A stretch of DNA of 64,000 bases from a virus (Duplodnaviria > Caudoviricetes), in IMG/VR virus record IMGVR_UViG_3300037420_002493, positions 10,055 through 74,054 of that record; one strand, written 5' to 3'. How positions within the stretch are numbered: the first letter of the stretch is position 1; each line of letters opens with the position of its first letter. This document shows, in pieces, positions 8,489-24,104 of this stretch. The notes below the pieces were generated by a model. It searched no databases, was not told the origin of the DNA, and saw nothing but the letters and a program-made list of their open reading frames with translations. Made by a program: the position numbers and the translations under genes.

Positions 8489-9235
8489 ATGGCAATTTTA
8501 ACGGGTTGGGGACTCCCTGACTTTCTGGTGAATGGTTATTTGTTGGATGTCGAGCCGATGGAGATTTCCGTCGATGCGAGTTCTGACACTAAGAAGGCGA
8601 AGAAGTTTGTCGGCGGCAAGCTCGTCACGGCAGGTACAGCAACGGGTGAAGAAACCTATGTGCTGAAGTTGGGAATTGAAGCCATTAAGTGGCAAGACAT
8701 CCAGTTCGCGTTAGGGCAACTTTCTACCGTGGCATCTACACTCAGCTTGCCAGAGCGCAAAGAGGCAACGGTACCGTTGACCACGCCTTACGAAATTACG
8801 GATGCCGATATTACCGATACCAGCGTGTGGGTAACGTTGCGAGATAAAGGAGCGTGGGGGCTACCAAAACCACTTACTAAAGTCATCACAACGCCTTCAA
8901 CAGGGCAGTTTCAGGTTGACGCAGAGAACAACAAGCTGATTTTCCCTGCCGCTTATGCAGGGGCACGCATTTTGTACCGAGTGTTTGTTGAGCAAACCGC
9001 GATCGATGCAATTGGCGTCAGCGCAACTCCAACCTTGCTCAATGAGCTTTCCTTTAGTGGTGTGACCTACGGTGACACCGAAACAGGACAGTTCAAGTTC
9101 TACATTCCCAAGGCAACCCGCTCATCAGCTCCGTCGATTAACCCCAGTGATGTGACAAAGCTCGAAATTGAGTATGAGCTAGTTCCAACCACCTCAAACC
9201 CGCTACCGTTCATCACCGTTCCAATCAGTGCCTAA
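8489..9235 (+). CDS. Probable tail tube / major tail protein
   Basis: Beta-rich 248 aa after neck genes; position-based. Confidence 0.55.
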   Translation: MAILTGWGLPDFLVNGYLLDVEPMEISVDASSDTKKAKKFVGGKLVTAGTATGEETYVLKLGIEAIKWQDIQFALGQLSTVASTLSLPERKEATVPLTTPYEITDADITDTSVWVTLRDKGAWGLPKPLTKVITTPSTGQFQVDAENNKLIFPAAYAGARILYRVFVEQTAIDAIGVSATPTLLNELSFSGVTYGDTETGQFKFYIPKATRSSAPSINPSDVTKLEIEYELVPTTSNPLPFITVPISA

Positions 9236-9806
9236 CTGGATTGAGTTTGCTCCGCCTGCTGAATTTCAAGATCGGGATGGCATTGTCCGCCCGATCGCAA
9301 CTTGCTCTTTAATTGGTCGGTTTGAGTTCAATGAACGAATTGAGCAAATTCAATCTCGCCTTGCTCTGGCAGAAGCGGGGGAGTCGTGGCAAGTCTTGTA
9401 CGATCGGGATAAGCGACTTCGGTTTTATGTCGATCGATGCCTCCAATTGAACGGCATTAGTCCGGAGTGGGTGACGCTGGAAATGGTGGAAGCATTCCTG
9501 TTTCACCGTTTTGATGAGGAGACTGACGAGTATCTTCCGGGTTGGTTGGTGGAGTTAAATTCGCCCAAACAAGCACCTCACAAGGTAGCACCAGAGAAGC
9601 CTTTGACGTTGGCAGAAATCCTTGCAGCATTGTCACTGCAAACCAGTGTTAGCGACGCTTTAGAGGTTGCCAGTTCCATTCCTGCTGAGATGGTGACAGC
9701 AATTAGTGAGGAGCGGAATCGAATGATGAGGCAGGCTCACGAGGGCAAGCCGCCTCAATCATCGAAACCTACTCGTGAAGAGTTGATGGAGTTGCTCAAC
9801 AAGTAA
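9228..9806 (+). CDS. Probable tail assembly chaperone
   Basis: Coupled to tube gene; position-based. Confidence 0.4.
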   Translation: MPNWIEFAPPAEFQDRDGIVRPIATCSLIGRFEFNERIEQIQSRLALAEAGESWQVLYDRDKRLRFYVDRCLQLNGISPEWVTLEMVEAFLFHRFDEETDEYLPGWLVELNSPKQAPHKVAPEKPLTLAEILAALSLQTSVSDALEVASSIPAEMVTAISEERNRMMRQAHEGKPPQSSKPTREELMELLNK

Positions 9807-9811
9807 GCAAC

Positions 9812-10114
9812 CTACCCTTTTCGCTTGGTCTGAGAATCTGAATCTTTACGATCGGGTGACTGTAAAGACTTTTGCGACTCTTCAGGGGTTACCTTGGGAG
9901 TTGGCTGGACAGGTAGTGAGTTGGGCTTGCTGAATGTAAAACTGTTGTTTCCAGACTTCAAGTCAACATTGTAACCTTGGTGGATTGCGTAGATAGACAG
10001 AATGAAAATCTGCGAAGCAATTATTAGTGCTGTGAAATTTTTATTCACCGGGGAGTGGGTGTTGTATCGTACCCGCCCCTGGCTAAAGCATCGTTGACAA
10101 ATAAATCCTAGCAC
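9812..10114 (-). CDS. Hypothetical membrane protein
   Basis: Hydrophobic FTALIIASQIFILSIYAI; convergent insertion before portal. Confidence 0.4.
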   Translation of the reverse strand: MLGFICQRCFSQGRVRYNTHSPVNKNFTALIIASQIFILSIYAIHQGYNVDLKSGNNSFTFSKPNSLPVQPTPKVTPEESQKSLQSPDRKDSDSQTKRKG

Positions 10115-10359
10115 AAGGATTTAGAAAGGTCTCCTCCTAGAGTAGGAGCCAAATCGGTCAGCTATGACCGATTTCAAAAACATTGTTACAGCATTTCTAA
10201 ACTTAACTACAATGACAGCTAAGTTTTATACGAAATTCTATAAAGATCAGCAGCTTTGCAGTCGATCGGTCCCTGTCACCACAGGGATTTTTTGTATCTG
10301 TCCGTCGATCGCTGAATTCAGCGTTATATTTGTCAAAGTCTTTGTCCTGACTTCGCTTC

Positions 10360-12177
10360 ATGCCGATCGCAGCTTCAGCAAGAATTGACCTAATCGACTC
10401 TGACCCGAATGTTGTTTCTAACATCCAAGGTGGTCCAGAGCCACAGGATGAATGGCTGCATTTTCGCTTCTCACAGGACTATCCTCAATACCAGCGAATG
10501 CGGCGTGACCCGCATGTTCGGTCTCGCCTAGATAAACGAGTTGATGCAATCCTAGGTCGCAGTGTTTTGGTTGAGGCTCCCAAGAAGCGGGGAGCTGCAA
10601 AAGCCGCAGAGAAAGTTCAGTCCATTCTCGATAAGGTCAAGTACGAAGCGCTTTGTAAGGCGGTACTGAAGTCAGGAATGCTGATTGGATTCAGCGTGCT
10701 GCAAATCGATTTTGTGGAAGATGAGGACGACAAGACTCTACTGATTCCAAAGTGGAAGTTTGTTCCACAATCACGCTTCACCTTTGCCTATCACAAGCCG
10801 GACGATCGGGCAGTTCTAGTGGTCAATGATGATGATCTTGACCCCGCAACCGAGATTTTATTAGTTCATGGCTATGAGCTGAGGCTACTCACCAAACGTG
10901 CTCCTATCTACGGGGAGCGAGTTCCCAAGAACCGATTTCTATGTTTTACGTTTGACTCTGAAGATAGCCCGTGGGGTTTGGGACTGGGCTACTCCATTTT
11001 CCCGTGGTGGGAAGTCAAACGGTGTGCGCTCAAAGCGTGGTTGCTGCACTCCGATCGACAAGGTTCACCACCGACGATCGGAACCACCCCAGCCGACCTA
11101 GACCCCAGCCATAACGACGACCACAAGAAGATCATTGCTGACTTTGAGGGGTTTCTGAAGGCGTTATCTCCGAGCAATTGGGCATCGTTTCCTGAAGGGT
11201 TTACGGCTCAGTTATTGGAAACGATCGGGCAGAGTGGACCAGAGGTGCATCAAGCCCTCATTCGGGAAGCAGACAACCAAATCAGTAAAGTTGTGTTGGG
11301 AGAAGTCCCCTTCTCGGACAAAGACACAGGCAGTTATGCCGCAAATGCATCTCAGGTCGAAGATAGAAGCTCAACCCTGACCGACGGGGATTGCAACCTA
11401 CTGGATGAGCAACTCTATGACGGGTTGTGGTTGCCAACTTTTGAGCTAAACAGCATCGTCGATGATGCCCCGATCGTGCGTCGGGAATCATTCGCAGACA
11501 CGCGCAAAGCCGCCCTTGAGAAGCAGAAGCTAGAGCATTCCAAGGCGGTAGCTGACCGAGACAAAGAACTGCAAGAACTGGGCTATCGTCGCACCGCTCA
11601 GAGTGTACTAGAAATTCATGGTGAAGGGCTGGAGTCGATTCAAACTGACACCGAGAAGCCGCCATTGGTGAGCACGATCGGGGTCGGTGGAACGCAAGCT
11701 CTATTAGGGTTGCTACAGCAAGCGTCGTCTGGAGAGTTGCCGAAAGAGAATGCGGTGGCAGCAATGGTTGCGATGTTTGGGCTTGACGAGAAAACCGCTG
11801 GCGCGATCGTGCCAGAACCGAAGCAAGAAAACTCGCAATCGTCGTCGCTCGATCAGCTTTTTGGAGGAGATACCGCGCCGACGGATACGACTAACTCAGA
11901 TACCCCAGCACCTCAACCGCAGTTTACCGAGCCAGAGTCAGAGCAGGTTGAGACGGTACGGGATGAATTACCCAGCGAGTTTGCCGCAGCCGTTGCAGCG
12001 TTGAGCCGACTGGATACGATCGGGCTTGAGGAATTTGGACTGGTATGGGATGACACGACCGAGTTTGATGAAGCGATCGCAGCGCTAAACCGAATTGAGG
12101 TAGATGGAATAGAGGTTGATATCTCCCTTGACTTTGAGGAGTGGGGGATTTGCCAACCCGATCGTAGTTACTCATGA
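10360..12177 (+). CDS. Portal protein (Mu gp29/DUF935 family) with acidic C-terminal extension
   Basis: YQRMRRDPHVRSRLDKRVDAILG; PWGLGLG; ISKVVLGE; GSYAANASQ. Confidence 0.9.
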   Translation: MPIAASARIDLIDSDPNVVSNIQGGPEPQDEWLHFRFSQDYPQYQRMRRDPHVRSRLDKRVDAILGRSVLVEAPKKRGAAKAAEKVQSILDKVKYEALCKAVLKSGMLIGFSVLQIDFVEDEDDKTLLIPKWKFVPQSRFTFAYHKPDDRAVLVVNDDDLDPATEILLVHGYELRLLTKRAPIYGERVPKNRFLCFTFDSEDSPWGLGLGYSIFPWWEVKRCALKAWLLHSDRQGSPPTIGTTPADLDPSHNDDHKKIIADFEGFLKALSPSNWASFPEGFTAQLLETIGQSGPEVHQALIREADNQISKVVLGEVPFSDKDTGSYAANASQVEDRSSTLTDGDCNLLDEQLYDGLWLPTFELNSIVDDAPIVRRESFADTRKAALEKQKLEHSKAVADRDKELQELGYRRTAQSVLEIHGEGLESIQTDTEKPPLVSTIGVGGTQALLGLLQQASSGELPKENAVAAMVAMFGLDEKTAGAIVPEPKQENSQSSSLDQLFGGDTAPTDTTNSDTPAPQPQFTEPESEQVETVRDELPSEFAAAVAALSRLDTIGLEEFGLVWDDTTEFDEAIAALNRIEVDGIEVDISLDFEEWGICQPDRSYS

Positions 12178-12376
12178 TCGTTGCAGGAGTTGATCTTCAG
12201 TTGGGTTTTGAGGAAGCTTGAGTTGCCAACCCACTCTCAATCTTCAAGCTCGTTGCAGGTTTAGGATCAGGCACTTGCCAACCCACTCTCAATCTTCAAG
12301 CTCGTTGCAGTTGCTGCATTTCAGCAACATACCGACGCCCTTGCCAACCCGCTCTCAGTCTTTATGATCGTTGCAG
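12150..12376 (-). CRISPR. Mini CRISPR array, 4 repeats and 3 spacers
   Basis: Repeats 12150-12186 (degenerate, 37 nt), 12223-12258 and 12275-12310 (identical, 36 nt), 12341-12376 (5 mismatches). Minus-strand repeat CTGCAACGAGCTTGAAGATTGAGAGTGGGTTGGCAA. Spacers 36, 16 and 30 nt. Confidence 0.9.
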
Positions 12377-14316
12377 GGCAACTCCCAAAGCGAAAGCTGG
12401 ATGTGGTTTTGAAGCCGTTTTGACAAGCGCTTTCTTGAAGATCTTGAAGATACCCCAGTTTTGCGGGTTGCTGACTCGCTACAGGTGTCACGAAGTCTAG
12501 CTGTGTCAGGGATTTCAGAATTTACAAGCATCCCTTTTCCTCCACTTGCCTGCGTCCTTCGCAATGTATGCGGATTGCGGGCAGTTCTAGGGATCGGAGG
12601 CACTAACACAACGGTTAATCCCTGACCAGACGAATCCGGTGATCCTTTGGCTGCATCCTCAGCAGGTTCACAAACAGTCGTGACTTGTACTTGACTGTTA
12701 GGCTCTGGCATGAGCAAGCCTTGTCGAATCGCTGGGGCAATTCGCAAGGTTCTGTTTTGGACGGGCATCAACTTGCCACACGTCCCGTAAGTGACAGAGC
12801 TAAGGAAGTTTGCACTTCCCACTCCGTCTCTGTCTCCTCTCCACCCACAACCCCCGTGTTTGGGATTGCAGTAGTAGACGCGGTTTCGCGGCTTGTGCCT
12901 GCGTCCGCATTGAGGGCACACTTGAGAGGTAAAGGCTTCACTGGCTTTCTCGGTTCCGATTCCGCCCGCCAGTTGCATCTTTTCCTCTAAATACTTCGCT
13001 TGGGTGGGCATCTCCCACATGTTGTTTCGAGACACTTGTTTGATGCGACGATTGCCCTTCTTTCTGCCCTTGGGCAATCGGTCCAAATCACCCACGTAAA
13101 TTTTGCCGACCTTACGTTCAACTGCCCAATCGACAGCGGTACGAGTAATGGTGTGGTTGGCATAGTTAAGTCTGATCCGGTAATAATCAGCGGCTTTTTG
13201 CTGACCCATGTAGAGACGATAATCCCGCTTGCTTCTGCGTCTCAAGGGTTTGGTGGATTGCTGATTGAGTGCAATGAGTGAGCGTCCCTTACCATCCAGC
13301 CCTTCTCTACGACGTTGCCGAATCATTCGCCATGCGTACTTGGCATCGCTGCCTGTGCGCTTTTTGCCTTGCCGTTGTCGCTCATTATCTTCTTCCTGCA
13401 ATCTGCGATAGGTAGCCTTCTCCTCAACAGAGAGGTATTGTCGGAATTGCCCCTTAAACACTCGCGCTCTTGCACGATTAATAGCTCGGTAGCGTCCGTC
13501 TCGCTCCCGCTTGAGAGCACAGATATCTTTGCCAGAAATAGTTGCCGTTTCTGCGGTTCCCTCTCCGTTCTGCACGGCAATGACAATGGCACGCTTCTGT
13601 CCAAAGTCTACGGCTGCCACTTGGGTGAGTTCAGGATTCGGTTCAACGGTGTGCTTTGTGCAGAGATGAAGATAGTAATGACCACTGCGAGATTTAGAAA
13701 TCTTAGCGTCACCGTCTAGCACTTTACCCTTTAGCTCTGGAAGTCGCAGCTTCAGTAGATAGGGCTTTGCACCCAGAATTAGCGTGTCTCCTTGGCGCTT
13801 GACGTGTAAGCCGCTGAAAGGAACTGGATAGTAGGACTTGAATCGTTTAGGTAGTTCAGCCTCGTGATCGCCCCGCTTGCGACGAGTAAAACATGCCTTA
13901 ATAGCTGCCTCAAAGGTGCGACAAATCGCATCTGCTGACTGTGCTGGAATGCCATAATCAGGTTTCTTGCTCTTACGGACAGCGATAACCAACCGCTCGA
14001 CACCCTTCTCTTTTCCTTGTTTGGCAGGCTTATTCTCCAACTGCTGAGGGTAGAGACTGTATTCCTGATTGGTGAACGTGCGAGTCAGTTCGTGTGCCCA
14101 TCCAAGCTGGAATAGATTTAAGTAGCTGTTCACCTCGTAAGGTTTGCAGCTTGGGTCAGCCTCTTTTAGGCGCTTGTACTCGTTGCGTTTGTACTGGAGA
14201 TGTTCAACCAACTGGTTATAGATGCGACGACTCGCTGCAAACATTCCTTCCAGCATGACTCTCTGGGTTGGAGTAGGAAAGAATTCAATTGTGAGGGTGC
14301 GAGTCGCTTCCATCAC
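12355..14316 (-). CDS. CRISPR-associated TnpB-derived (Cas12-like) RNA-guided nuclease, rearranged RuvC-II
   Basis: OrfB-type N-term FFPTPTQRVMLEGMFAASRRIYN; RuvC-I AAVDFG; RuvC-II IYVGDL with downstream SEAFTS; Zn finger CPQC..C..C; RuvC-III DRDGVGSAN; adjacent array. Confidence 0.85.
   Translation of the reverse strand: MMEATRTLTIEFFPTPTQRVMLEGMFAASRRIYNQLVEHLQYKRNEYKRLKEADPSCKPYEVNSYLNLFQLGWAHELTRTFTNQEYSLYPQQLENKPAKQGKEKGVERLVIAVRKSKKPDYGIPAQSADAICRTFEAAIKACFTRRKRGDHEAELPKRFKSYYPVPFSGLHVKRQGDTLILGAKPYLLKLRLPELKGKVLDGDAKISKSRSGHYYLHLCTKHTVEPNPELTQVAAVDFGQKRAIVIAVQNGEGTAETATISGKDICALKRERDGRYRAINRARARVFKGQFRQYLSVEEKATYRRLQEEDNERQRQGKKRTGSDAKYAWRMIRQRRREGLDGKGRSLIALNQQSTKPLRRRSKRDYRLYMGQQKAADYYRIRLNYANHTITRTAVDWAVERKVGKIYVGDLDRLPKGRKKGNRRIKQVSRNNMWEMPTQAKYLEEKMQLAGGIGTEKASEAFTSQVCPQCGRRHKPRNRVYYCNPKHGGCGWRGDRDGVGSANFLSSVTYGTCGKLMPVQNRTLRIAPAIRQGLLMPEPNSQVQVTTVCEPAEDAAKGSPDSSGQGLTVVLVPPIPRTARNPHTLRRTQASGGKGMLVNSEIPDTARLRDTCSESATRKTGVSSRSSRKRLSKRLQNHIQLSLWELPCNDHKD
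12434..12470 (-). ncRNA. Candidate anti-repeat (tracr/omega-scaffold part)
   Basis: Minus strand CAACCCGC-11 nt-ATCTTCAAG ATCTTCAAG is collinear with the repeat complement CAACCCAC-5 nt-ATCTTCAAG. Confidence 0.45.
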
Positions 14317-14522
14317 GATTCCTCAACTAACTCATCTTCATGGGCAGAGTCTTCAAACAGGTGTGGACGATCGAACTGGACAAAATACGTGAATCCAGGA
14401 CGCGACCAGCATGAACCGGGAGCGGTTAACGCATAGAGCACAGCACGAATCACACCCGCATCGTTATCGCTCGTTCTGACCCGTTGCCCAATTTGAAACC
14501 GACAGGGAGGCAGACTATACAC
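14313..14522 (-). CDS. Small SH3/KOW-like protein
   Basis: RFQIGQRV..GVI..PGFTYFVQFD; paralog at 48389; stop overlaps effector ATG. Confidence 0.6.
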   Translation of the reverse strand: MYSLPPCRFQIGQRVRTSDNDAGVIRAVLYALTAPGSCWSRPGFTYFVQFDRPHLFEDSAHEDELVEES

Positions 14523-14784
14523 GGTGACACTCCCCCTGTGGAATCTGGGCTAATAACTCAGGCGCATCAGCTTCTAGATGAGTAAGATTCTCGTTGACCA
14601 ACCTTCTCCCAGCCCTCCAAGTCTCTTCGGTAGAGGGAAGAATCCGATCGGTCTCAGTGTCTCCTATCTCCTGCCCAAAGGGGTCAAGAACGGCTGTTTT
14701 GTAGCCTCCGATGACTTCGATCGGGCAGATTAAATGACCGCGATATCTAAAGCTGCAACCCCACAGATAAATGTCTTCTCTCAT
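14515..14784 (-). CDS. Hypothetical protein
   Basis: Paralog of 48129-48392 (RGxLI..VLxPFGxEIGDT..APEL). Confidence 0.6.
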   Translation of the reverse strand: MREDIYLWGCSFRYRGHLICPIEVIGGYKTAVLDPFGQEIGDTETDRILPSTEETWRAGRRLVNENLTHLEADAPELLAQIPQGECHRV

Positions 14785-15071
14785 GACTCAACTACTCCAA
14801 TAATCCTGTCTTCGTGAATGGTTTCTACCTCATCTCCTTCGTCTCCACTCTCAAGGTGGTAATCCCATCCAGGCTCACAGTTCTCCGCAAAGGCAATGGC
14901 AACGCGAGTAAACCGACAGCCGCAAATTCTGCCTTCAGCAATCTCGTCTTTGCTGCTCCCTCTCACTTTGTAGCGAACGGTTTGCCAAATCTCGTATTTG
15001 GGCTTTGGAGTAGGGTTACTCAGGTAGTGGTAGAGTTTTTGTTCAAGTTTGGTTAATGCTGCTTTTGCCAT
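14781..15071 (-). CDS. Small SH3/KOW-like protein
   Basis: PKYEIWQTVRY..GRICGCRF..PGWDY. Confidence 0.6.
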   Translation of the reverse strand: MAKAALTKLEQKLYHYLSNPTPKPKYEIWQTVRYKVRGSSKDEIAEGRICGCRFTRVAIAFAENCEPGWDYHLESGDEGDEVETIHEDRIIGVVES

Positions 15072-15074
15072 GTC

Positions 15075-15428
15075 TCAGTCCTCCACAATGTCAGTTTCGT
15101 AAACCTCGATAATCCTGGCATCGGCTTCGATGCGGTAATACCAGCCGGGGTCTTCGCCTCGACCTTGAAGAAAGGCAATACCGACGCGCACGAAATGGAA
15201 GCCACAGACCCGACCTTGTTTAATTTCTGGGTTGTCGTTGTCGTAAGATTTATCGTCGTAAGACGTGTATTGAACGAGTTGCCACAAGTTGTATTTGGGC
15301 TGAGTTCTGGGGTGATTCAGCAACTCTTGCAAGTGCTGCTCAAATTCCTCAACCGGATCTGGCGTCACGCCAGTATTGATAGGGGTGGTCATAAAAACCT
15401 CGTAAATTAGCCCAACTGATAAAGACAA
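15075..15428 (-). CDS. Small SH3/KOW-like protein
   Basis: PKYNLWQLVQY..GRVCGFHF..PGWYY; tandem paralog of 14781. Confidence 0.6.
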   Translation of the reverse strand: MSLSVGLIYEVFMTTPINTGVTPDPVEEFEQHLQELLNHPRTQPKYNLWQLVQYTSYDDKSYDNDNPEIKQGRVCGFHFVRVGIAFLQGRGEDPGWYYRIEADARIIEVYETDIVED

Positions 15429-15859
15429 ACTTGCTCTGCATTGCTCAGTCCCAACTCGCGCAGAATGAAGCGCGAAATCTCCGAAGGGAACTGAGTTAAA
15501 GACAGCTCAATGCGGTTGCTAAACACACCGAGAAAGTGAGCGCGTCCTTGCTGTGACACTGCTTCTTCGATCAGGGCGTCTAAATCCTCAATCACCGATT
15601 GCAGAATCTCAGACTCATCGATCGCAAAGCCCTCTTGGATGTAACTCACTAAACGCCTTGCTTTTGGAGGTAAGCCCCCATGCTTGAGAATTAGGTCGGT
15701 ATCTACCTGGTCAAGACATTCTCTTGCCAGTTCTCGTGCGGCAAGTTCTGCCTCAGTGACAGTGCCAGTGGCGTATTCCTTGCCGTTGATTTTGAAGACG
15801 ATTAAGCCGTAGAAGTCGTCTTGGGACTTCTGAATTGCGGTTCTAACTGCTGTGAGCAT
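15407..15859 (-). CDS. Hypothetical protein
   Basis: 150 aa ORF in the same operon. Confidence 0.55.
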   Translation of the reverse strand: MLTAVRTAIQKSQDDFYGLIVFKINGKEYATGTVTEAELAARELARECLDQVDTDLILKHGGLPPKARRLVSYIQEGFAIDESEILQSVIEDLDALIEEAVSQQGRAHFLGVFSNRIELSLTQFPSEISRFILRELGLSNAEQVCLYQLG

Positions 15860-15930
15860 GACTCGCCTAATTCCTAGTTCAGTGGTGTAGAGGGTGAGGC
15901 ATCCTGATCGGATCAGGATGCCAAAGGGAG

Positions 15931-16197
15931 TTAGAAGGCTTGGCAGGTCTGAGCGAGTTCTTTCTCTTCGACGCGCCAGTCTTGACCCGTAGCAGCTTTT
16001 AAGGTTCGGTTGAGCTGGTCGTTAGCCCAGATATCTTGACGAACCAGGACATCGAAATCTTGAAAATCTAGGGTGGCTTGGCAGCTTTCAAAGCGTCTGG
16101 CTTTGACGTGGTAGCGACGAGTAACGACTCCGGTATAGGTAGCGCTCGGAGCGGTGATGAGACGGGTTTGCTTGGAGGGTGCGATCGTTGTTAGCAT
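15931..16197 (-). CDS. Hypothetical protein, first gene of leftward operon
   Basis: 88 aa; AAAGGA upstream. Confidence 0.55.
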   Translation of the reverse strand: MLTTIAPSKQTRLITAPSATYTGVVTRRYHVKARRFESCQATLDFQDFDVLVRQDIWANDQLNRTLKAATGQDWRVEEKELAQTCQAF

Positions 16198-16364
16198 GAC
16201 GTAAATCCTTTCGTGGGGTTTGTGGAGGAAGCGCTTGAAGTTGTCCAGACCCAGAGCGCTTTCTCTATGCTTTCAATATTACCTATTAAGTAATGCTTGT
16301 CAAGTAATACCTATGAAGATAAGATATATCTGTAGGCAAACGAGATACTTGAGAGGTGATACCT

Positions 16365-16619
16365 ATGGGGCAATTCTTGGTGAAGATCACCTATACGAAG
16401 GACTTTCCGGGAATTGGAAAGCAGATACGCGAATACAGACGGCAATCAGATAAGCCTCTAGCTGAGTTGGCAGCAGAGGCAGGTATCAGCGTTCCTCACT
16501 GGAACCGAGTTGAAAACGAAAAAGTTGGAGAGCTGCCACTAGAAACGCTTCGAGGTATCGAAAAGGCTCTTGGCGTTGATCTAGGAGTACGCTTCGATGA
16601 TTCATCCTCAAGCCAGTAA
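16365..16619 (+). CDS. XRE-family HTH repressor, divergent from effector operon
   Basis: IGKQIREYRRQSDKPLAELAAEAGISVPHWNRVENE. Confidence 0.85.
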   Translation: MGQFLVKITYTKDFPGIGKQIREYRRQSDKPLAELAAEAGISVPHWNRVENEKVGELPLETLRGIEKALGVDLGVRFDDSSSSQ

Positions 16620-16756
16620 CCCTCTCGCTCTTCCATCGGTTTCCTTGGAGAGCCGATCGCGGGTTAGCAAAGCAAATAGAGGATAATGAAATTAGTCGAT
16701 TTAAGAGTGTTCGCCAGTTTCTCAACTCAATTCCCACACGTCAACATGAGATCACT

Positions 16757-17206
16757 ATGATCCCGATGTTCAGTGCTAACGGAAAATTACCGCCTGGTAT
16801 CCATCGTTGTACATGGAAAGAATTTGTGGAGCGCTTTGGAATCACGCCCCATCGCTTGAACCTAATTGCTGGGCTTAAAAGGGCAATGGAGCACTTACAG
16901 ATAGCGGGATGTTCCATTATTTACATTGACGGCAGTTTTGTAACCGACAAAGTAGTGCCTGGCGATTTCGATGCTTGTTGGGAAACTAGAGGTGTTGATG
17001 CAAAAAAACTAATCTCGATCGCTCCCTCCTTGTTGGACTTTTCTAACAGACGAGCTGCTCAGAAAGCAGAGTACGGCGGAGAGTTATTTTTTGCTGGAGT
17101 ACCCGCAGATAATGCTGGAAATTTATTTCTAGATTTCTTCCAGATGGATAGAGATGGTCAGCCCAAAGGGATTATTGCTATTGATTTAGAGAGGTGGCAG
17201 CCGTGA
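16757..17206 (+). CDS. DUF6932-like nucleotidyltransferase-fold protein (putative toxin)
   Basis: GKLPPGIH..W.EF.ERFG; YIDGSFVTDK..PGDFD. Confidence 0.7.
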   Translation: MIPMFSANGKLPPGIHRCTWKEFVERFGITPHRLNLIAGLKRAMEHLQIAGCSIIYIDGSFVTDKVVPGDFDACWETRGVDAKKLISIAPSLLDFSNRRAAQKAEYGGELFFAGVPADNAGNLFLDFFQMDRDGQPKGIIAIDLERWQP

Positions 17207-17622
17207 TTGAAAACGAGCAGCAATATCACATCACGCAGGCTCAAGCTCAGAAGTTTGAAAAGGCTTTAGAGCGTATGCTTCAATCATCCGAGCAAGAGCG
17301 CGAGACAAATCCTCTGCTTTGGCAAGCTCAAATCTCTGCTTTGGAGAGTCAGCTTAGCGACCTGCGCGAAGAAATAGAGGAATACAACACAAGCCGCGTG
17401 AAGAGCGAGGGGCTTGAGACTAGATACGGTGAACTGATTACGGTACTGGTTGAAGATGTAATACGGGTAAAACAGGAAAATCGACCGCTTTCTAAAATTA
17501 TTGCCTCGATTGCAGTTGCAAGAGTAGTGGTGACAATCTTGCATGTTTTATGGAGTATGCCTATAGAGGGTACTATCTCTCTAAGCTCAGCACTTAAAGA
17601 AAAGAAGCAATCTGAAGGATGA
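17203..17622 (+). CDS. Partner of DUF6932-like gene (helical antitoxin-like N-term)
   Basis: GTGA overlap with upstream stop; IENEQQY..AQISALESQLSDLREEIEEY. Confidence 0.55.
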   Translation: MIENEQQYHITQAQAQKFEKALERMLQSSEQERETNPLLWQAQISALESQLSDLREEIEEYNTSRVKSEGLETRYGELITVLVEDVIRVKQENRPLSKIIASIAVARVVVTILHVLWSMPIEGTISLSSALKEKKQSEG

Positions 17623-17723
17623 TCGATTTCAGCGACGATCGTGATGACTGAATCGGATTGACGGGCGATCATTTGTCCTAGTTTGGTAATCTTGTAGAAT
17701 TAACCCCCTAGCTTAGGAATTCT

Positions 17724-18062
17724 ATGAGTAGCCAGAATCAGATTACAGCGATGTTAATGCTCAAAGTCTCCGGTCGAGACACCTGGCAAGGCATGGGAGA
17801 AAAAGCCTATAGTGTCCTTCCACGAACCGGAGAGTTTATCGAGATAGACGTTGATGGGACAGCCTATTGGTGCAAGGTTGTCGCTGTTGCTCATTCATCC
17901 GAGCCAACGACCAATATTGGCGACATTTATGCCGTCCCACTGGGAAAATCAACGGACGTGCTAAAACAACTTTTTGATTCTACTGAGTCACCTCATTTTG
18001 ATTCTGCTGAGTGGTCTCAGGAGCTTGAGGAGAAAGATGCAGGGTGGATTGGTAAGGTATAG
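17724..18062 (+). CDS. Hypothetical protein
   Basis: 112 aa; AGGA upstream. Confidence 0.55.
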   Translation: MSSQNQITAMLMLKVSGRDTWQGMGEKAYSVLPRTGEFIEIDVDGTAYWCKVVAVAHSSEPTTNIGDIYAVPLGKSTDVLKQLFDSTESPHFDSAEWSQELEEKDAGWIGKV

Positions 18063-21665: not shown

Positions 21666-22991
21666 ATGTCGATCAATTTTTCAGAGCTTAAAACAACTGA
21701 AGATGTTTACATCGAAATTGGTCGCCGCTATGTCGCTGAAACGCGGCTCCAGGAAGCGATCGCGGCTGCATTAAACGGCACTTACTATGAATTTGCTGCC
21801 GCCAAGAAGAAGGCGTCAGGTAAGAAAAACTGTAATCCCGCAAAGAGTCATTTCTGCCAGACCCCAAACGGAACAGGAAGCTGTGTCTCGCTGGGCAAGC
21901 AATGCAAATTCAAGCCAAGTGGCAGCGTCAAGCAAGCCGCAGTTTACACTGGCGAAAATGCGTCATCCGCGATCGCGGCACCTGAAAAACCTAAAAAATC
22001 AACAAAGAAAACGACCAAGAAGGCAGAAGCGGTTCCTGTAAAAGAAATTGACACAGCAGGAATTCATGAAGATTTTGTTCCTCTTTATAAAATGGCTAAT
22101 GGTTTCAAGCCTGATGAGATTAAACTGACGGATGATCAAGTCGAGGCTGCGAAGGGGTTTATGGAAGACAAATATAAAGGGACTCCAAAACAAAAGCAGA
22201 TCAAAAAAGAAGGCAAAACCACAGACGAGGAGTCGCAGGCTTTGGCTAATTGGCTAGGAATCTCCTATCAAGAAATGAGTGCCAGGATCTGGAAAGCTAC
22301 TTCGGTAGAAGATTCTGACGGGGGAATTCTAGCGGCGGATATTTTAGCAGCTAAAGCTTTGCATAAATTACCATCCGCTACAGCCGAACAAATCGCCAAA
22401 GGTGCTGAAAAGAAAGGGGTTTACGATTTTGATCCTACCAAGCCATTAAAACGATGGATGAGGATTAAAGGCGAGGGTGGGGCAGAAGAGTTTATCAAAA
22501 AATACCAAGATAATATTGGGAAAGAGATCACCGAGGATAATTTTTTTGGAACTTCCCACCTTAGCGCCAATCAAATGTCGGCATTCTCAACAGGTGCAAA
22601 CGTAATCTATCAGGTTGAGGCAAAACTTGATGGGACGGGGCAAGGGAAATATGTAGATCACTACAAGAAGACAATGAGCGAAGGGGAGATTCTATTCCCT
22701 CCATACTCAAAATTCAAAGTTGTCAAAGTCGTCGCGCCAAAAACAGATCCCCTAAGCAAAGAGGAACATACTTCTATTGCTATCCATGATGCAGTCGAGG
22801 AAGCAAAATTTATGTCGTCTTTGATTGGAACCTCAATGAAGGGGCAATACAAGTATCTCACAGGAAAAACACTACCAAAAGACTGGAAAGACCAAGTAGA
22901 GCTTGCCAAGAAAGCCAAAGAAAAATTGAAAAACTTCGATAGCCAAGATGGGCATCTTGATGCCTATACCATCCATTTACAGGAGATCTAA
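21666..22991 (+). CDS. Head-associated protein with C-terminal ADP-ribosyltransferase (R-S-ExE type) domain
   Basis: LKRWMR; FFGTSH; SEGEILFPPYSKFKV; Cys-rich N-term. Confidence 0.7.
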   Translation: MSINFSELKTTEDVYIEIGRRYVAETRLQEAIAAALNGTYYEFAAAKKKASGKKNCNPAKSHFCQTPNGTGSCVSLGKQCKFKPSGSVKQAAVYTGENASSAIAAPEKPKKSTKKTTKKAEAVPVKEIDTAGIHEDFVPLYKMANGFKPDEIKLTDDQVEAAKGFMEDKYKGTPKQKQIKKEGKTTDEESQALANWLGISYQEMSARIWKATSVEDSDGGILAADILAAKALHKLPSATAEQIAKGAEKKGVYDFDPTKPLKRWMRIKGEGGAEEFIKKYQDNIGKEITEDNFFGTSHLSANQMSAFSTGANVIYQVEAKLDGTGQGKYVDHYKKTMSEGEILFPPYSKFKVVKVVAPKTDPLSKEEHTSIAIHDAVEEAKFMSSLIGTSMKGQYKYLTGKTLPKDWKDQVELAKKAKEKLKNFDSQDGHLDAYTIHLQEI

Positions 22992-23366: not shown

Positions 23367-24104
23367 ATGCTCAAACTTCCCACCAATCCAACTGCCGATC
23401 AGATTAAAGCGATCGTCACCGCCACCATCCGTGAAACATTCGAGGACGACGCCACTCTCACAGGCGATATCAAGCCCTATGGGAAAAGCGGATGGCAGGT
23501 TACGTACAAAAGTGGTGATATTGAGTTCATCCTCGAATGGGACGGCAACGAATTCACCAAATATCCCAAGCCTAGTAACTTCAGCGAGTTTGAGTTTGGT
23601 GCCATCATTGACAAGGTTCTGAAGTGGAACGGTCTAGATATTGGCGTTGAGTACAACCCAGGTCAAGTAAGGTTCCCAGGTCGTAAGAACTCAAAGAAAC
23701 TACGATCGGGTTATGGGCATATCCGTAACCATGTGGGGGCAGACGGAGAGGCATTAGACTGCTACATCTATTCAGGGTTGCTAAATGACTCGCAATCTGG
23801 GTCTAATTTGATTTTCCGCGTCACTCAGCTTGCCGACGATGGCGACTTCGACGAGTACAAGTTTATGCTCGGGTATGCCAGTAAGGGAGCTGCTCAGGAT
23901 GCATACTTGCAGGAGATGCCCAAAGAGTTCTTCGGAGGAATTGAAGCGGTCGATCGGGAGCACATTGACGACTACCGCAAACCCTCGAACTACGCAGAAT
24001 CTGAGGTTCTGTCAGATAGTGAGTGGGATGGATTAGCAGGAATTGATGATGCGTCGATCGCGGATGCGCTAGACACGATGGCTGATCCTGGAAATCGGTC
24101 ATAG
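23367..24104 (+). CDS. Phage protein with inorganic-pyrophosphatase-like domain
   Basis: YGHIRNHVGADGEALDCYI; DEYKFMLGY..AQDAYL. Confidence 0.7.
   Translation: MLKLPTNPTADQIKAIVTATIRETFEDDATLTGDIKPYGKSGWQVTYKSGDIEFILEWDGNEFTKYPKPSNFSEFEFGAIIDKVLKWNGLDIGVEYNPGQVRFPGRKNSKKLRSGYGHIRNHVGADGEALDCYIYSGLLNDSQSGSNLIFRVTQLADDGDFDEYKFMLGYASKGAAQDAYLQEMPKEFFGGIEAVDREHIDDYRKPSNYAESEVLSDSEWDGLAGIDDASIADALDTMADPGNRS

Follow-up and report, generated by a model that had tools for sequence, protein, structure and literature searches.

Does a gene for a TnpB-derived protein that ends inside a CRISPR-like repeat belong to a CRISPR system, or is it an ordinary transposon gene next to unrelated repeats? This question is raised by a locus in the IMG/VR virus record IMGVR_UViG_3300037420_002493, of which a stretch of 64,000 nucleotides (nt) was analyzed (positions 10,055 to 74,054 of the record, called the window in the following). 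The locus comprises an open reading frame (ORF) for a TnpB-derived Cas12-like effector of 652 or 653 amino acids (aa) (12355..14316, minus strand, stop codon TGA at 12355-12357) and a short repeat array at the end of this gene. A sequence-only reading of the same DNA had taken it for a TnpB-derived type V-like CRISPR system. Our results speak for this assignment: the protein belongs to a distinct clade, the array is kept at 11 of 12 loci, and repeat and anti-repeat co-vary. We regard it as likely that the locus encodes, on a phage, a type V-like CRISPR system of TnpB origin, in which the effector gene, a scaffold RNA within this gene and a mini-array at its stop codon overlap on one strand. 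The function of the system is what we infer from the sequence. New here is the covariation-supported scaffold in the last ~430 nt of the effector gene, which ends in an anti-repeat that co-varies with the repeat of each locus.

Array at the stop codon of the effector gene

The array consists of four 36-nt direct repeats, all located on the strand of the effector gene. Shuffled sequences gave no such matches. Repeat 1 (12341..12376, minus strand like the whole array) holds the last six codons and the stop codon of the effector gene and is 86% identical to the core copy. Repeats 2 (12275..12310) and 3 (12223..12258) are identical to each other, and repeat 4 (12150..12186) is a degenerate terminal copy. 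The spacers are irregular in length, with 30 nt for spacer 1 (12311..12340), 16 nt for spacer 2 (12259..12274), which is probably truncated, and 36 nt for spacer 3 (12187..12222). Coordinates and shuffles thus agree with the earlier description of a same-strand array of four repeats and three spacers, in whose first repeat the ORF ends. A search of positions 9000-18000 against Rfam revealed no family, and a scan for promoters and terminators gave nothing over the level of shuffled sequences. Repeat 4 also overlaps the final codons of a Mu-like portal gene (10360-12177) that converges on the array; in its product, the last 180 aa are not part of the portal domain.

Family and homologous loci

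Relatives of the effector are rare. Among 5.8 billion clusters 24 were found, nearly all of them singletons, with lengths of 500-850 aa. An exhaustive search of 1.84 billion entries yielded 17 representatives at E ≤ 1e-30, followed after a gap by ordinary TnpBs of ~400 aa at 1e-27. In a tree from a quick IQ-TREE search the family forms a single clade against the 60 nearest TnpBs (SH-aLRT 100, stem length 0.92), and the protein is not nested among TnpBs that are borne by insertion sequences (IS) and lack repeats. Judged by these searches, it is a rare family apart from the ordinary ~400-aa TnpBs. The nearest TnpB loci that were examined have no repeats, and one of them carries a Y1 TnpA. Named members occur in Leptolyngbya, Trichocoleus, Floridaenema and cyanobacterial metagenome-assembled genomes, and the family was present in one of 401 sampled cyanobacterial genomes. 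The effector gene is single-copy in the 74-kb record, and its homologues are single-copy clusters as well. In a literature search, the accession numbers of the family members occurred in no paper.

Twelve loci, this window counted, have enough downstream sequence to be informative. At 11 of them a same-strand array starts at the effector stop codon or a few bases before it. These arrays consist of 2-13 repeats of 35-38 nt with spacers of mostly 34-39 nt. The repeat sequences differ from locus to locus, so the homologues keep the array despite diverged repeats. The exception is the closest homologue, L005 from Leptolyngbya sp. FACHB-541, in which a lone repeat-like unit precedes a DUF932 gene. 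This unit is located at L005:9863-9898; the matching anti-repeat is kept with a G.U pair, and the DUF932 gene begins at the guide position.

RNA scaffold in the 3' end of the gene

For prediction of a common RNA structure, we applied RNAalifold to nine loci, over a stretch of 490 nt that ends with repeat 1. The analysis revealed 90 base pairs in 16 helices, and 51 of the pairs show compensatory changes. They define a structured scaffold RNA of ~430 nt, similar to an omegaRNA or a tracrRNA (trans-activating CRISPR RNA), at 12377..12808 on the minus strand. It contains six hairpins (12785-12759, 12749-12719, 12715-12702, 12699-12673, 12535-12508 and 12499-12471) and a multibranch region (12666-12549). 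In the scaffold 91% of the alignment cells are paired, compared to 76% in shuffles and 35-44% with slid partners. Cells with double changes amount to 116 versus 37 in shuffles. On all five measures, 0 of 500 shuffles reached the observed values.

The conservation of the gene changes along its length. Up to approximately residue 530 the family alignment shows a conserved core, after which a poorly conserved tail of ~120 aa follows. Identity at codon positions 1, 2 and 3 is 0.66, 0.74 and 0.39 in the core and 0.55, 0.57 and 0.56 in the tail, where no codon periodicity is visible; third-position conservation climbs from about residue 503. Since all three codon positions are equally conserved, the tail appears to be conserved as nucleotides and not as codons. 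The tail protein is predicted to be disordered by AlphaFold2 (AF2), with pLDDT (predicted local distance difference test) values that stay under 50 from residue 558 onwards and under 60 over most of residues 535-557. In the homologue L023 (5656-6100) the ORF stops right after the RuvC domain, and the scaffold, the bases coding for Q-L-S-L-W and a two-repeat mini-array continue downstream. As a proof that the tail is dispensable this locus was set aside, since the break resembles a frameshift on a contig that is covered only 2x.

The scaffold ends in an anti-repeat. Its 3'-most long-range helix is formed by an 8-nt block ~115 nt before the stop codon and the 3' part of the repeat, just before the terminal GGCAA or GGCAG. 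In the window this first block is CAACCCGC (12463..12470, minus strand), which pairs with GCGGGTTG in repeat 1 and with GTGGGTTG in repeats 2 and 3. The nine loci have nine different yet complementary versions of the block. For this helix 93% of the cells are paired versus 70% in shuffles, with 16 versus 4 double-change cells, and again 0 of 500 shuffles reached these values. Additional complementary blocks pair with the middle and the 5' part of the repeat. In the window, this second block is ATCTTCAAG, which occurs twice in tandem (12434..12451, minus strand) and complements CTTGAAGAT, located centrally in repeats 2 and 3. The duplication is perfect, and the repeat could pair with it in either of two registers.

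The duplexes between repeats and tails are also specific for each locus. Cognate duplexes have an average energy of -29.1 kcal/mol, compared to -20.5 kcal/mol for non-cognate ones, and the cognate duplex is the most stable one in eight of nine rows and eight of nine columns (permutation p < 1e-4). RNAduplex energies measured against shuffled repeats were not discriminating alone; the signal comes from the covariation and from the cognate versus non-cognate comparison. In the distant members L012 and L022 an insertion in the tail places the same two-block anti-repeat ~300 nt upstream. Read from the sequence, the layout is that of a tracrRNA anti-repeat which is placed as in the omegaRNA of TnpB.

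With an ordinary IS200/IS605 TnpB, whose omegaRNA lies beside repeats of chance or of unrelated cyanobacterial origin, the locus would share an RNA that overlaps the 3' end of the ORF, which is a TnpB trait. The matches of the protein are generic, too (guided_TnpB with 77 bits and ISDra2 TnpB as the top structure). However, such an element fits neither the missing TnpA and the single copy in the record, nor a monophyletic family apart from the IS TnpBs, nor a gene-array junction that is shared by 11 of 12 loci, and it does not account for the co-variation of repeat and anti-repeat. We consider this explanation very improbable and, as far as sequence analysis can do so, refuted.

The family could also be real while the copy in this prophage is a decaying, non-functional remnant. 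The ORF, however, runs without interruption through 653 codons and includes every invariant residue, the scaffold helices are kept and the anti-repeat pairs with repeats 1-3. The features that suggest decay are found in the array, which has only three spacers of irregular length, a repeat 1 with no more than 86% identity to the core copy and a degenerate repeat 4, and in the classification of the record as a provirus by IMG/VR. Degenerate terminal repeats are normal in arrays. Decay of this copy therefore appears improbable to us.

Effector protein and nuclease site

Two start codons are possible for the effector, GTG at 14316 (653 aa) and ATG at 14313 (652 aa). The latter is the likely start and agrees with the database gene call P0002 (652 aa). 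Pfam domains were identified at residues 2-45 (HTH_OrfB_IS605) and 441-503 (Cas12f1-like_TNB, a zinc ribbon). The proposed OrfB-type protein of 653 aa with an N-terminal helix-turn-helix (HTH) is consistent with the ORF and the first of these domains. The NCBIfam model guided_TnpB matches with 77 bits, which is under its cut-off of 100. The top PADLOC model is PDLC01691, labelled as Cas12f, with 76 bits, equal to the generic guided_TnpB score.

The folded TnpB/Cas12f-like core comprises residues 1 to ~530 (12727..14316, minus strand) and was modelled by AF2 with pLDDT values of mostly 80-95. According to the alignment with the nearest TnpBs, it has a larger N-terminal lobe than the ~400-aa TnpBs and a long helical insertion at about residues 290-360. 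The best structural matches of the model are ISDra2 TnpB (Z 16.8), AsCas12f (Z 16.1) and SpCas12f (Z 15.8), followed by Cas12p (Z 12.9), RdCas12n (Z 12.7, partial) and Cas12k (Z 12.3). A phmmer search of the effector against PDB sequences found nothing, and the family profile gave weak Cas12f matches only, over the C-terminal RuvC and Zn-finger region. By tblastn against GenBank phages only remote TnpBs of Clostridioides and Geobacillus phages were detected, and a search of the ESM Atlas revealed generic TnpB clusters only. The PADLOC model PDLC01039 ("Csx1", "found elsewhere") hits the TnpB core in 15 of 22 family members, with a best E value of 1.5e-19; the label "Csx1" looks wrong for these proteins.

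Three RuvC motifs and a Zn finger had been read from the sequence before. The Zn finger is confirmed by four invariant cysteines, C467, C470, C483 and C490 (12847..12918, minus strand), together with the Cas12f1-like_TNB domain. RuvC-I (Asp237, codon at 13606..13608, minus strand) and RuvC-III (Asp497, codon at 12826..12828, minus strand) are present. The canonical glutamate of RuvC-II is not: the position aligned to E324 of AsCas12f is occupied by Gly409 (13090..13092, minus strand), which is invariant across the family and the nearest TnpBs. Downstream of it, an invariant Glu435 (13012..13014, minus strand) is located in a W-E motif that is also present in many of the nearest TnpBs. D237, E435, D497 and the four cysteines are invariant over 22 family members. 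A replacement of this glutamate by glycine, with a substitute glutamate from the following element, was described for a large branch of TnpBs, in which activity is probably kept (Altae-Tran et al., 2023; PMC10691335). By likeness to published AlphaFold models, E435 is a candidate for the relocated catalytic glutamate. By the same analogy, the nuclease site is rearranged at RuvC-II but probably active.

The glycine could alternatively mark the effector as an RNA-guided DNA binder or repressor, as in Cas12m, Cas12k and TldR, and the partly matching spacers would then regulate genes of the phage itself. Inactivated lineages, however, usually lose such residues as D237, E435 and D497, which are invariant here over 22 members. 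The spacers bear on this explanation as well and are described below.

The tail, predicted to be disordered, contains one peptide motif, Q-L-S-L-W-E at residues 640-645 (12382..12399, minus strand), which is kept at the protein level in distant members. W644 is nearly invariant in the family. The motif has the form Q-L-x-L-W-(D/E), or Q-L-x-F/L-D-L-W in distant members. Its codons differ synonymously, with CAG CTT in close members and CAA TTG or CAG TTA in the distant L012 and L022, and the ORF of distant members stays open through 100-200 additional tail codons. From these synonymous codons and the open frame, the peptide itself seems to be selected. The sliding-clamp-binding motif of bacteria is QL[SD]LF or QLxLxL. 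Q-L-x-L-W-(D/E) resembles this beta-clamp-binding motif. As a tentative idea, the 3' third of the gene might be dual-coding, for the guide-scaffold RNA and for a disordered tether by which the nuclease would ride the host beta clamp at replication forks. To our knowledge, no Cas effector rides the beta clamp.

Spacers and their putative targets

In the window, two spacers resemble head genes of the phage itself. Spacer 1 matches a head gene with an ADP-ribosyltransferase exoenzyme (ART) domain at 21720-21749 with 22 of 30 nt (73%). The match is in codon phase, both sequences encode the same seven residues, and the first four differences are all located at third positions. Spacer 3 matches a minor head gene with a pyrophosphatase domain at 23370-23405 with 25 of 36 nt (69%), in phase and directly after the start codon. 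For the 16-nt spacer 2 no match beyond chance was found within the record. The ART-domain protein is encoded at 21666-22991 in the head block. The second gene (23367-24104 in the same block) encodes an inorganic-pyrophosphatase-like domain and is grouped by PHROGs with minor head and DarB-like proteins. Both proteins could be ejected or virion-associated enzymes.

Closer matches occur at homologous loci. Spacers 2 and 4 of L020 match an ORF on their own contig (34/36 and 31/35), with the mismatches near the repeat-proximal end. Spacers of L012 match other contigs of the same genome, one with 33/34 and one with 34/42 in a synonymous pattern. Spacer 1 of L021 has a 17-nt match at the start of the downstream gene. 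A match of an L013 spacer in G003:C116 was rejected as spurious, since it extended into repeat sequence. The 5' flanks of the near-protospacers are ATT, ATG, ATG, ATC, GCA and GTA, a weak hint at 5'-ATN as protospacer adjacent motif (PAM). The four near-protospacers on the sense strand that were checked (21717-21749 and 23367-23405 in the window, L020:3859-3894 and L020:3833-3867) all have their first base at codon position 1, and for three the preceding in-frame codon is ATG or ATT. Chance (~1%) may explain this, or the PAM may be the cause.

Virus-borne mini-arrays are known to carry spacers from relatives, while the resident alleles escape. The simplest reading of the matches described here is that the spacers were taken from phages related to the resident prophage, whose own alleles escape. 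Matches to diverged in-frame homologues of its own head genes suggest inter-phage conflict.

For a repressor, on the other hand, it counts that the spacers of three loci match the same element or the host genome and not foreign DNA, that the match of L021 lies at the start of the downstream gene, and that in the closest homologue, L005, one fixed guide is present, directly next to the DUF932 gene. The mismatches, however, are PAM-proximal (positions 2-3 in spacer 2 of L020, position 4 in spacer 10 of L012) or follow the synonymous third-position pattern, which fits escape from self-cleavage and acquisition from relatives. In addition, the targets are head genes and ORFans and not promoters. 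We consider regulation of the phage's own genes unlikely and prefer a CRISPR system that is directed against related phages.

Several points weigh against a working system of this kind. The canonical RuvC-II glutamate is absent and glycine is found instead, and its replacement by E435 is argued by analogy to published AlphaFold models. The array of the window looks worn, with a 16-nt spacer and diverged repeats 1 and 4. Spacer matches of 73% and 69% were also reached by shuffled spacers in 2-3 of 200 trials, and exact protospacers were not found in IMG/VR by scans with spacers 1 and 3 in codon-degenerate form. Finally, the PAM hint is derived from six near-matches, of which two disagree.

Comparison with known systems

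The closest analogue is Cas12n (type V-N, formerly V-U4), followed by the TranC systems. For Cas12n systems an unstructured, dispensable C-terminal tail is reported, whose coding DNA holds the tracrRNA, with the array located downstream (bioRxiv 10.64898/2026.03.27.714800). Both systems share a compact TnpB-derived effector, the lack of adaptation genes and a tail, predicted to be disordered here, that codes for the scaffold. In contrast, the reported scaffold of Cas12n has 100-200 nt and not ~430 nt, and the cyanophage family differs by its glycine in RuvC-II and by its occurrence in cyanobacterial phages. Nor are the two specifically related in sequence: the PADLOC profile for Cas12u4 matches 6 of 22 family members (best E 2e-11) but not the effector of the window, and the family profile matches RdCas12n (9J09) with E 4.5e-4 in the Zn-finger region only.

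TranC systems and the types V-U6 to V-U45 are independent TnpB lineages which gained arrays by splitting the omegaRNA or reRNA into tracrRNA and repeat; they are often found without cas1 and cas2 and often on mobile elements (PMC10691335). They are the closest in concept, a likeness by description and not by clade placement. LaTranC (9JFQ) is a distant structural match to the effector.

TnpB with its omegaRNA, in the RuvC-II-rearranged (RIIr) branches, shares the core fold (Z 16.8 to ISDra2 TnpB) and a guide-scaffold RNA that reaches over the 3' end of the gene. The glycine at RuvC-II, with the W-E motif, is common to the family and the nearest ~400-aa TnpBs. In contrast to TnpB elements, the cyanophage system lacks TnpA and IS ends and has not spread to multiple copies, its effector is ~130-230 aa larger, and it has an array of exchangeable guides instead of one fixed guide.

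Cas12f (type V-F) belongs to a similar size class and is structurally close (AsCas12f with Z 16.1 and a TM score of 0.63-0.70). It depends on a tracrRNA, which is predicted here as well. However, sequence identity is only 14-16%, the PADLOC Cas12f match of 76 bits is no better than that of generic TnpB, and Cas12f has the canonical RuvC-II glutamate and an intergenic tracrRNA.

For Cas12k (type V-K, CRISPR-associated transposons), a resemblance of the repeats had been suggested earlier. It is partial: the GGGTTG near the 3' end of the repeat and the AACCC of the anti-repeat resemble the published V-K consensus wkrGGyGGGTTGAAAG. Cas12k is also cyanobacterial, of similar length and found in the order effector, tracrRNA and array on one strand. 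The likeness does not extend to the protein. The Cas12k hidden Markov model (HMM) NF038191 (cut-off 150 bits) gave no match at E ≤ 1 or in a six-frame search, the RuvC residues that are inactivated in Cas12k are conserved in the cyanophage family, and TnpB and Cas12f surpass Cas12k (Z 12.3) as structural matches. Judged by its sequence, the effector is not Cas12k despite the likeness of the repeat.

Phage-borne systems with miniature Cas12-like genes are known, too. Cyanophage CL131 carries a V-U2 system with such a gene, a small array and no adaptation module (PMC6293099). This arrangement is shared by the Cas12p "hacker" and by the locus described here. However, the CL131 effector (466 aa) shows generic TnpB-level similarity only (best pairwise segment E 4e-5) and no tblastn match, and the Cas12u2 profile matches 2 of 22 family members. 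Cas12p differs by a separate tracrRNA, a GTN PAM and a structural Z of 12.9. On sequence level the family fits none of the available profiles, with no match for Cas12k and weak ones for Cas12u4, Cas12u2 and Cas12f, and the V-U2 effector of CL131 is remote.

Prophage setting

The record of 74 kb that contains the window is classed as a provirus by IMG/VR. Genes for a head protease, a major head protein and the Mu-like portal protein were identified in the window. HIP1 sites, a cyanobacterial signature, occur 34 times compared to 1.45 expected, and a cyanobacterial host is indicated by this excess. These genes and the HIP1 count are in line with the cyanophage that had been assumed from the sequence. 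The absence of adjacent tnpA and cas1 genes was also claimed correctly: HMMs for Cas1, Y1 TnpA and Cas12k gave no match in the 74-kb record. As to Tn7 genes, the examined neighbours are head genes or small ORFs without family match, with no Tn7-gene HMM search having been made.

The ATG of the effector overlaps the stop codon of an upstream ORF of 69 aa (TGATG, 14311-14316), and the effector gene closes a run of small minus-strand ORFs (14313-15071) without family matches. This arrangement suggests one operon of the small ORFs and the effector gene with translational coupling.

The surroundings of the homologues are prophage-like as well, with small ORFans, amidase, integrase and Cro/CI-like HTH genes. 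Small Xre/Cro-type HTH genes are often located directly upstream of the effector (L020:4256-4960, L021:777-1434, L026:130-399 and L024:2864-3751). A GIY-YIG/RHH gene is also found upstream in L020, and a RES-Xre toxin-antitoxin pair in L024. A conserved upstream accessory gene was not found at the homologous loci, and the recurring HTH genes are not mutually homologous.

Proposed mechanism and significance

In the mechanism that we propose, a single transcript would carry the effector mRNA, the scaffold and the precursor of the CRISPR RNAs. The anti-repeat at the 3' end of the scaffold would pair in cis with the 3' part of repeat 1 and in trans with that of the other repeats, and the spacer after the paired repeat would become the guide. 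The complex would bind and probably cut DNA beside a 5' PAM, tentatively ATN. Its targets would be related phages, either superinfecting the lysogen or infecting together with the resident phage, which would itself escape because its own alleles carry mismatches.

The family would represent an independent, very rare transition from a transposon nuclease to a CRISPR effector, which took place on a RuvC-II-rearranged TnpB branch in cyanobacterial phages. This transition would be visible inside one small family, in which the scaffold has not left the gene, the array is fused to the stop codon and one close relative retains a single fixed guide. The co-variation of repeat and anti-repeat allows the architecture of the guide to be deduced from the sequence alone, and this makes the protein, with a compact core of ~530 aa, a candidate editor that is directly testable. 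The near-self spacers would add a cyanophage example of mini-arrays that are used against relatives.

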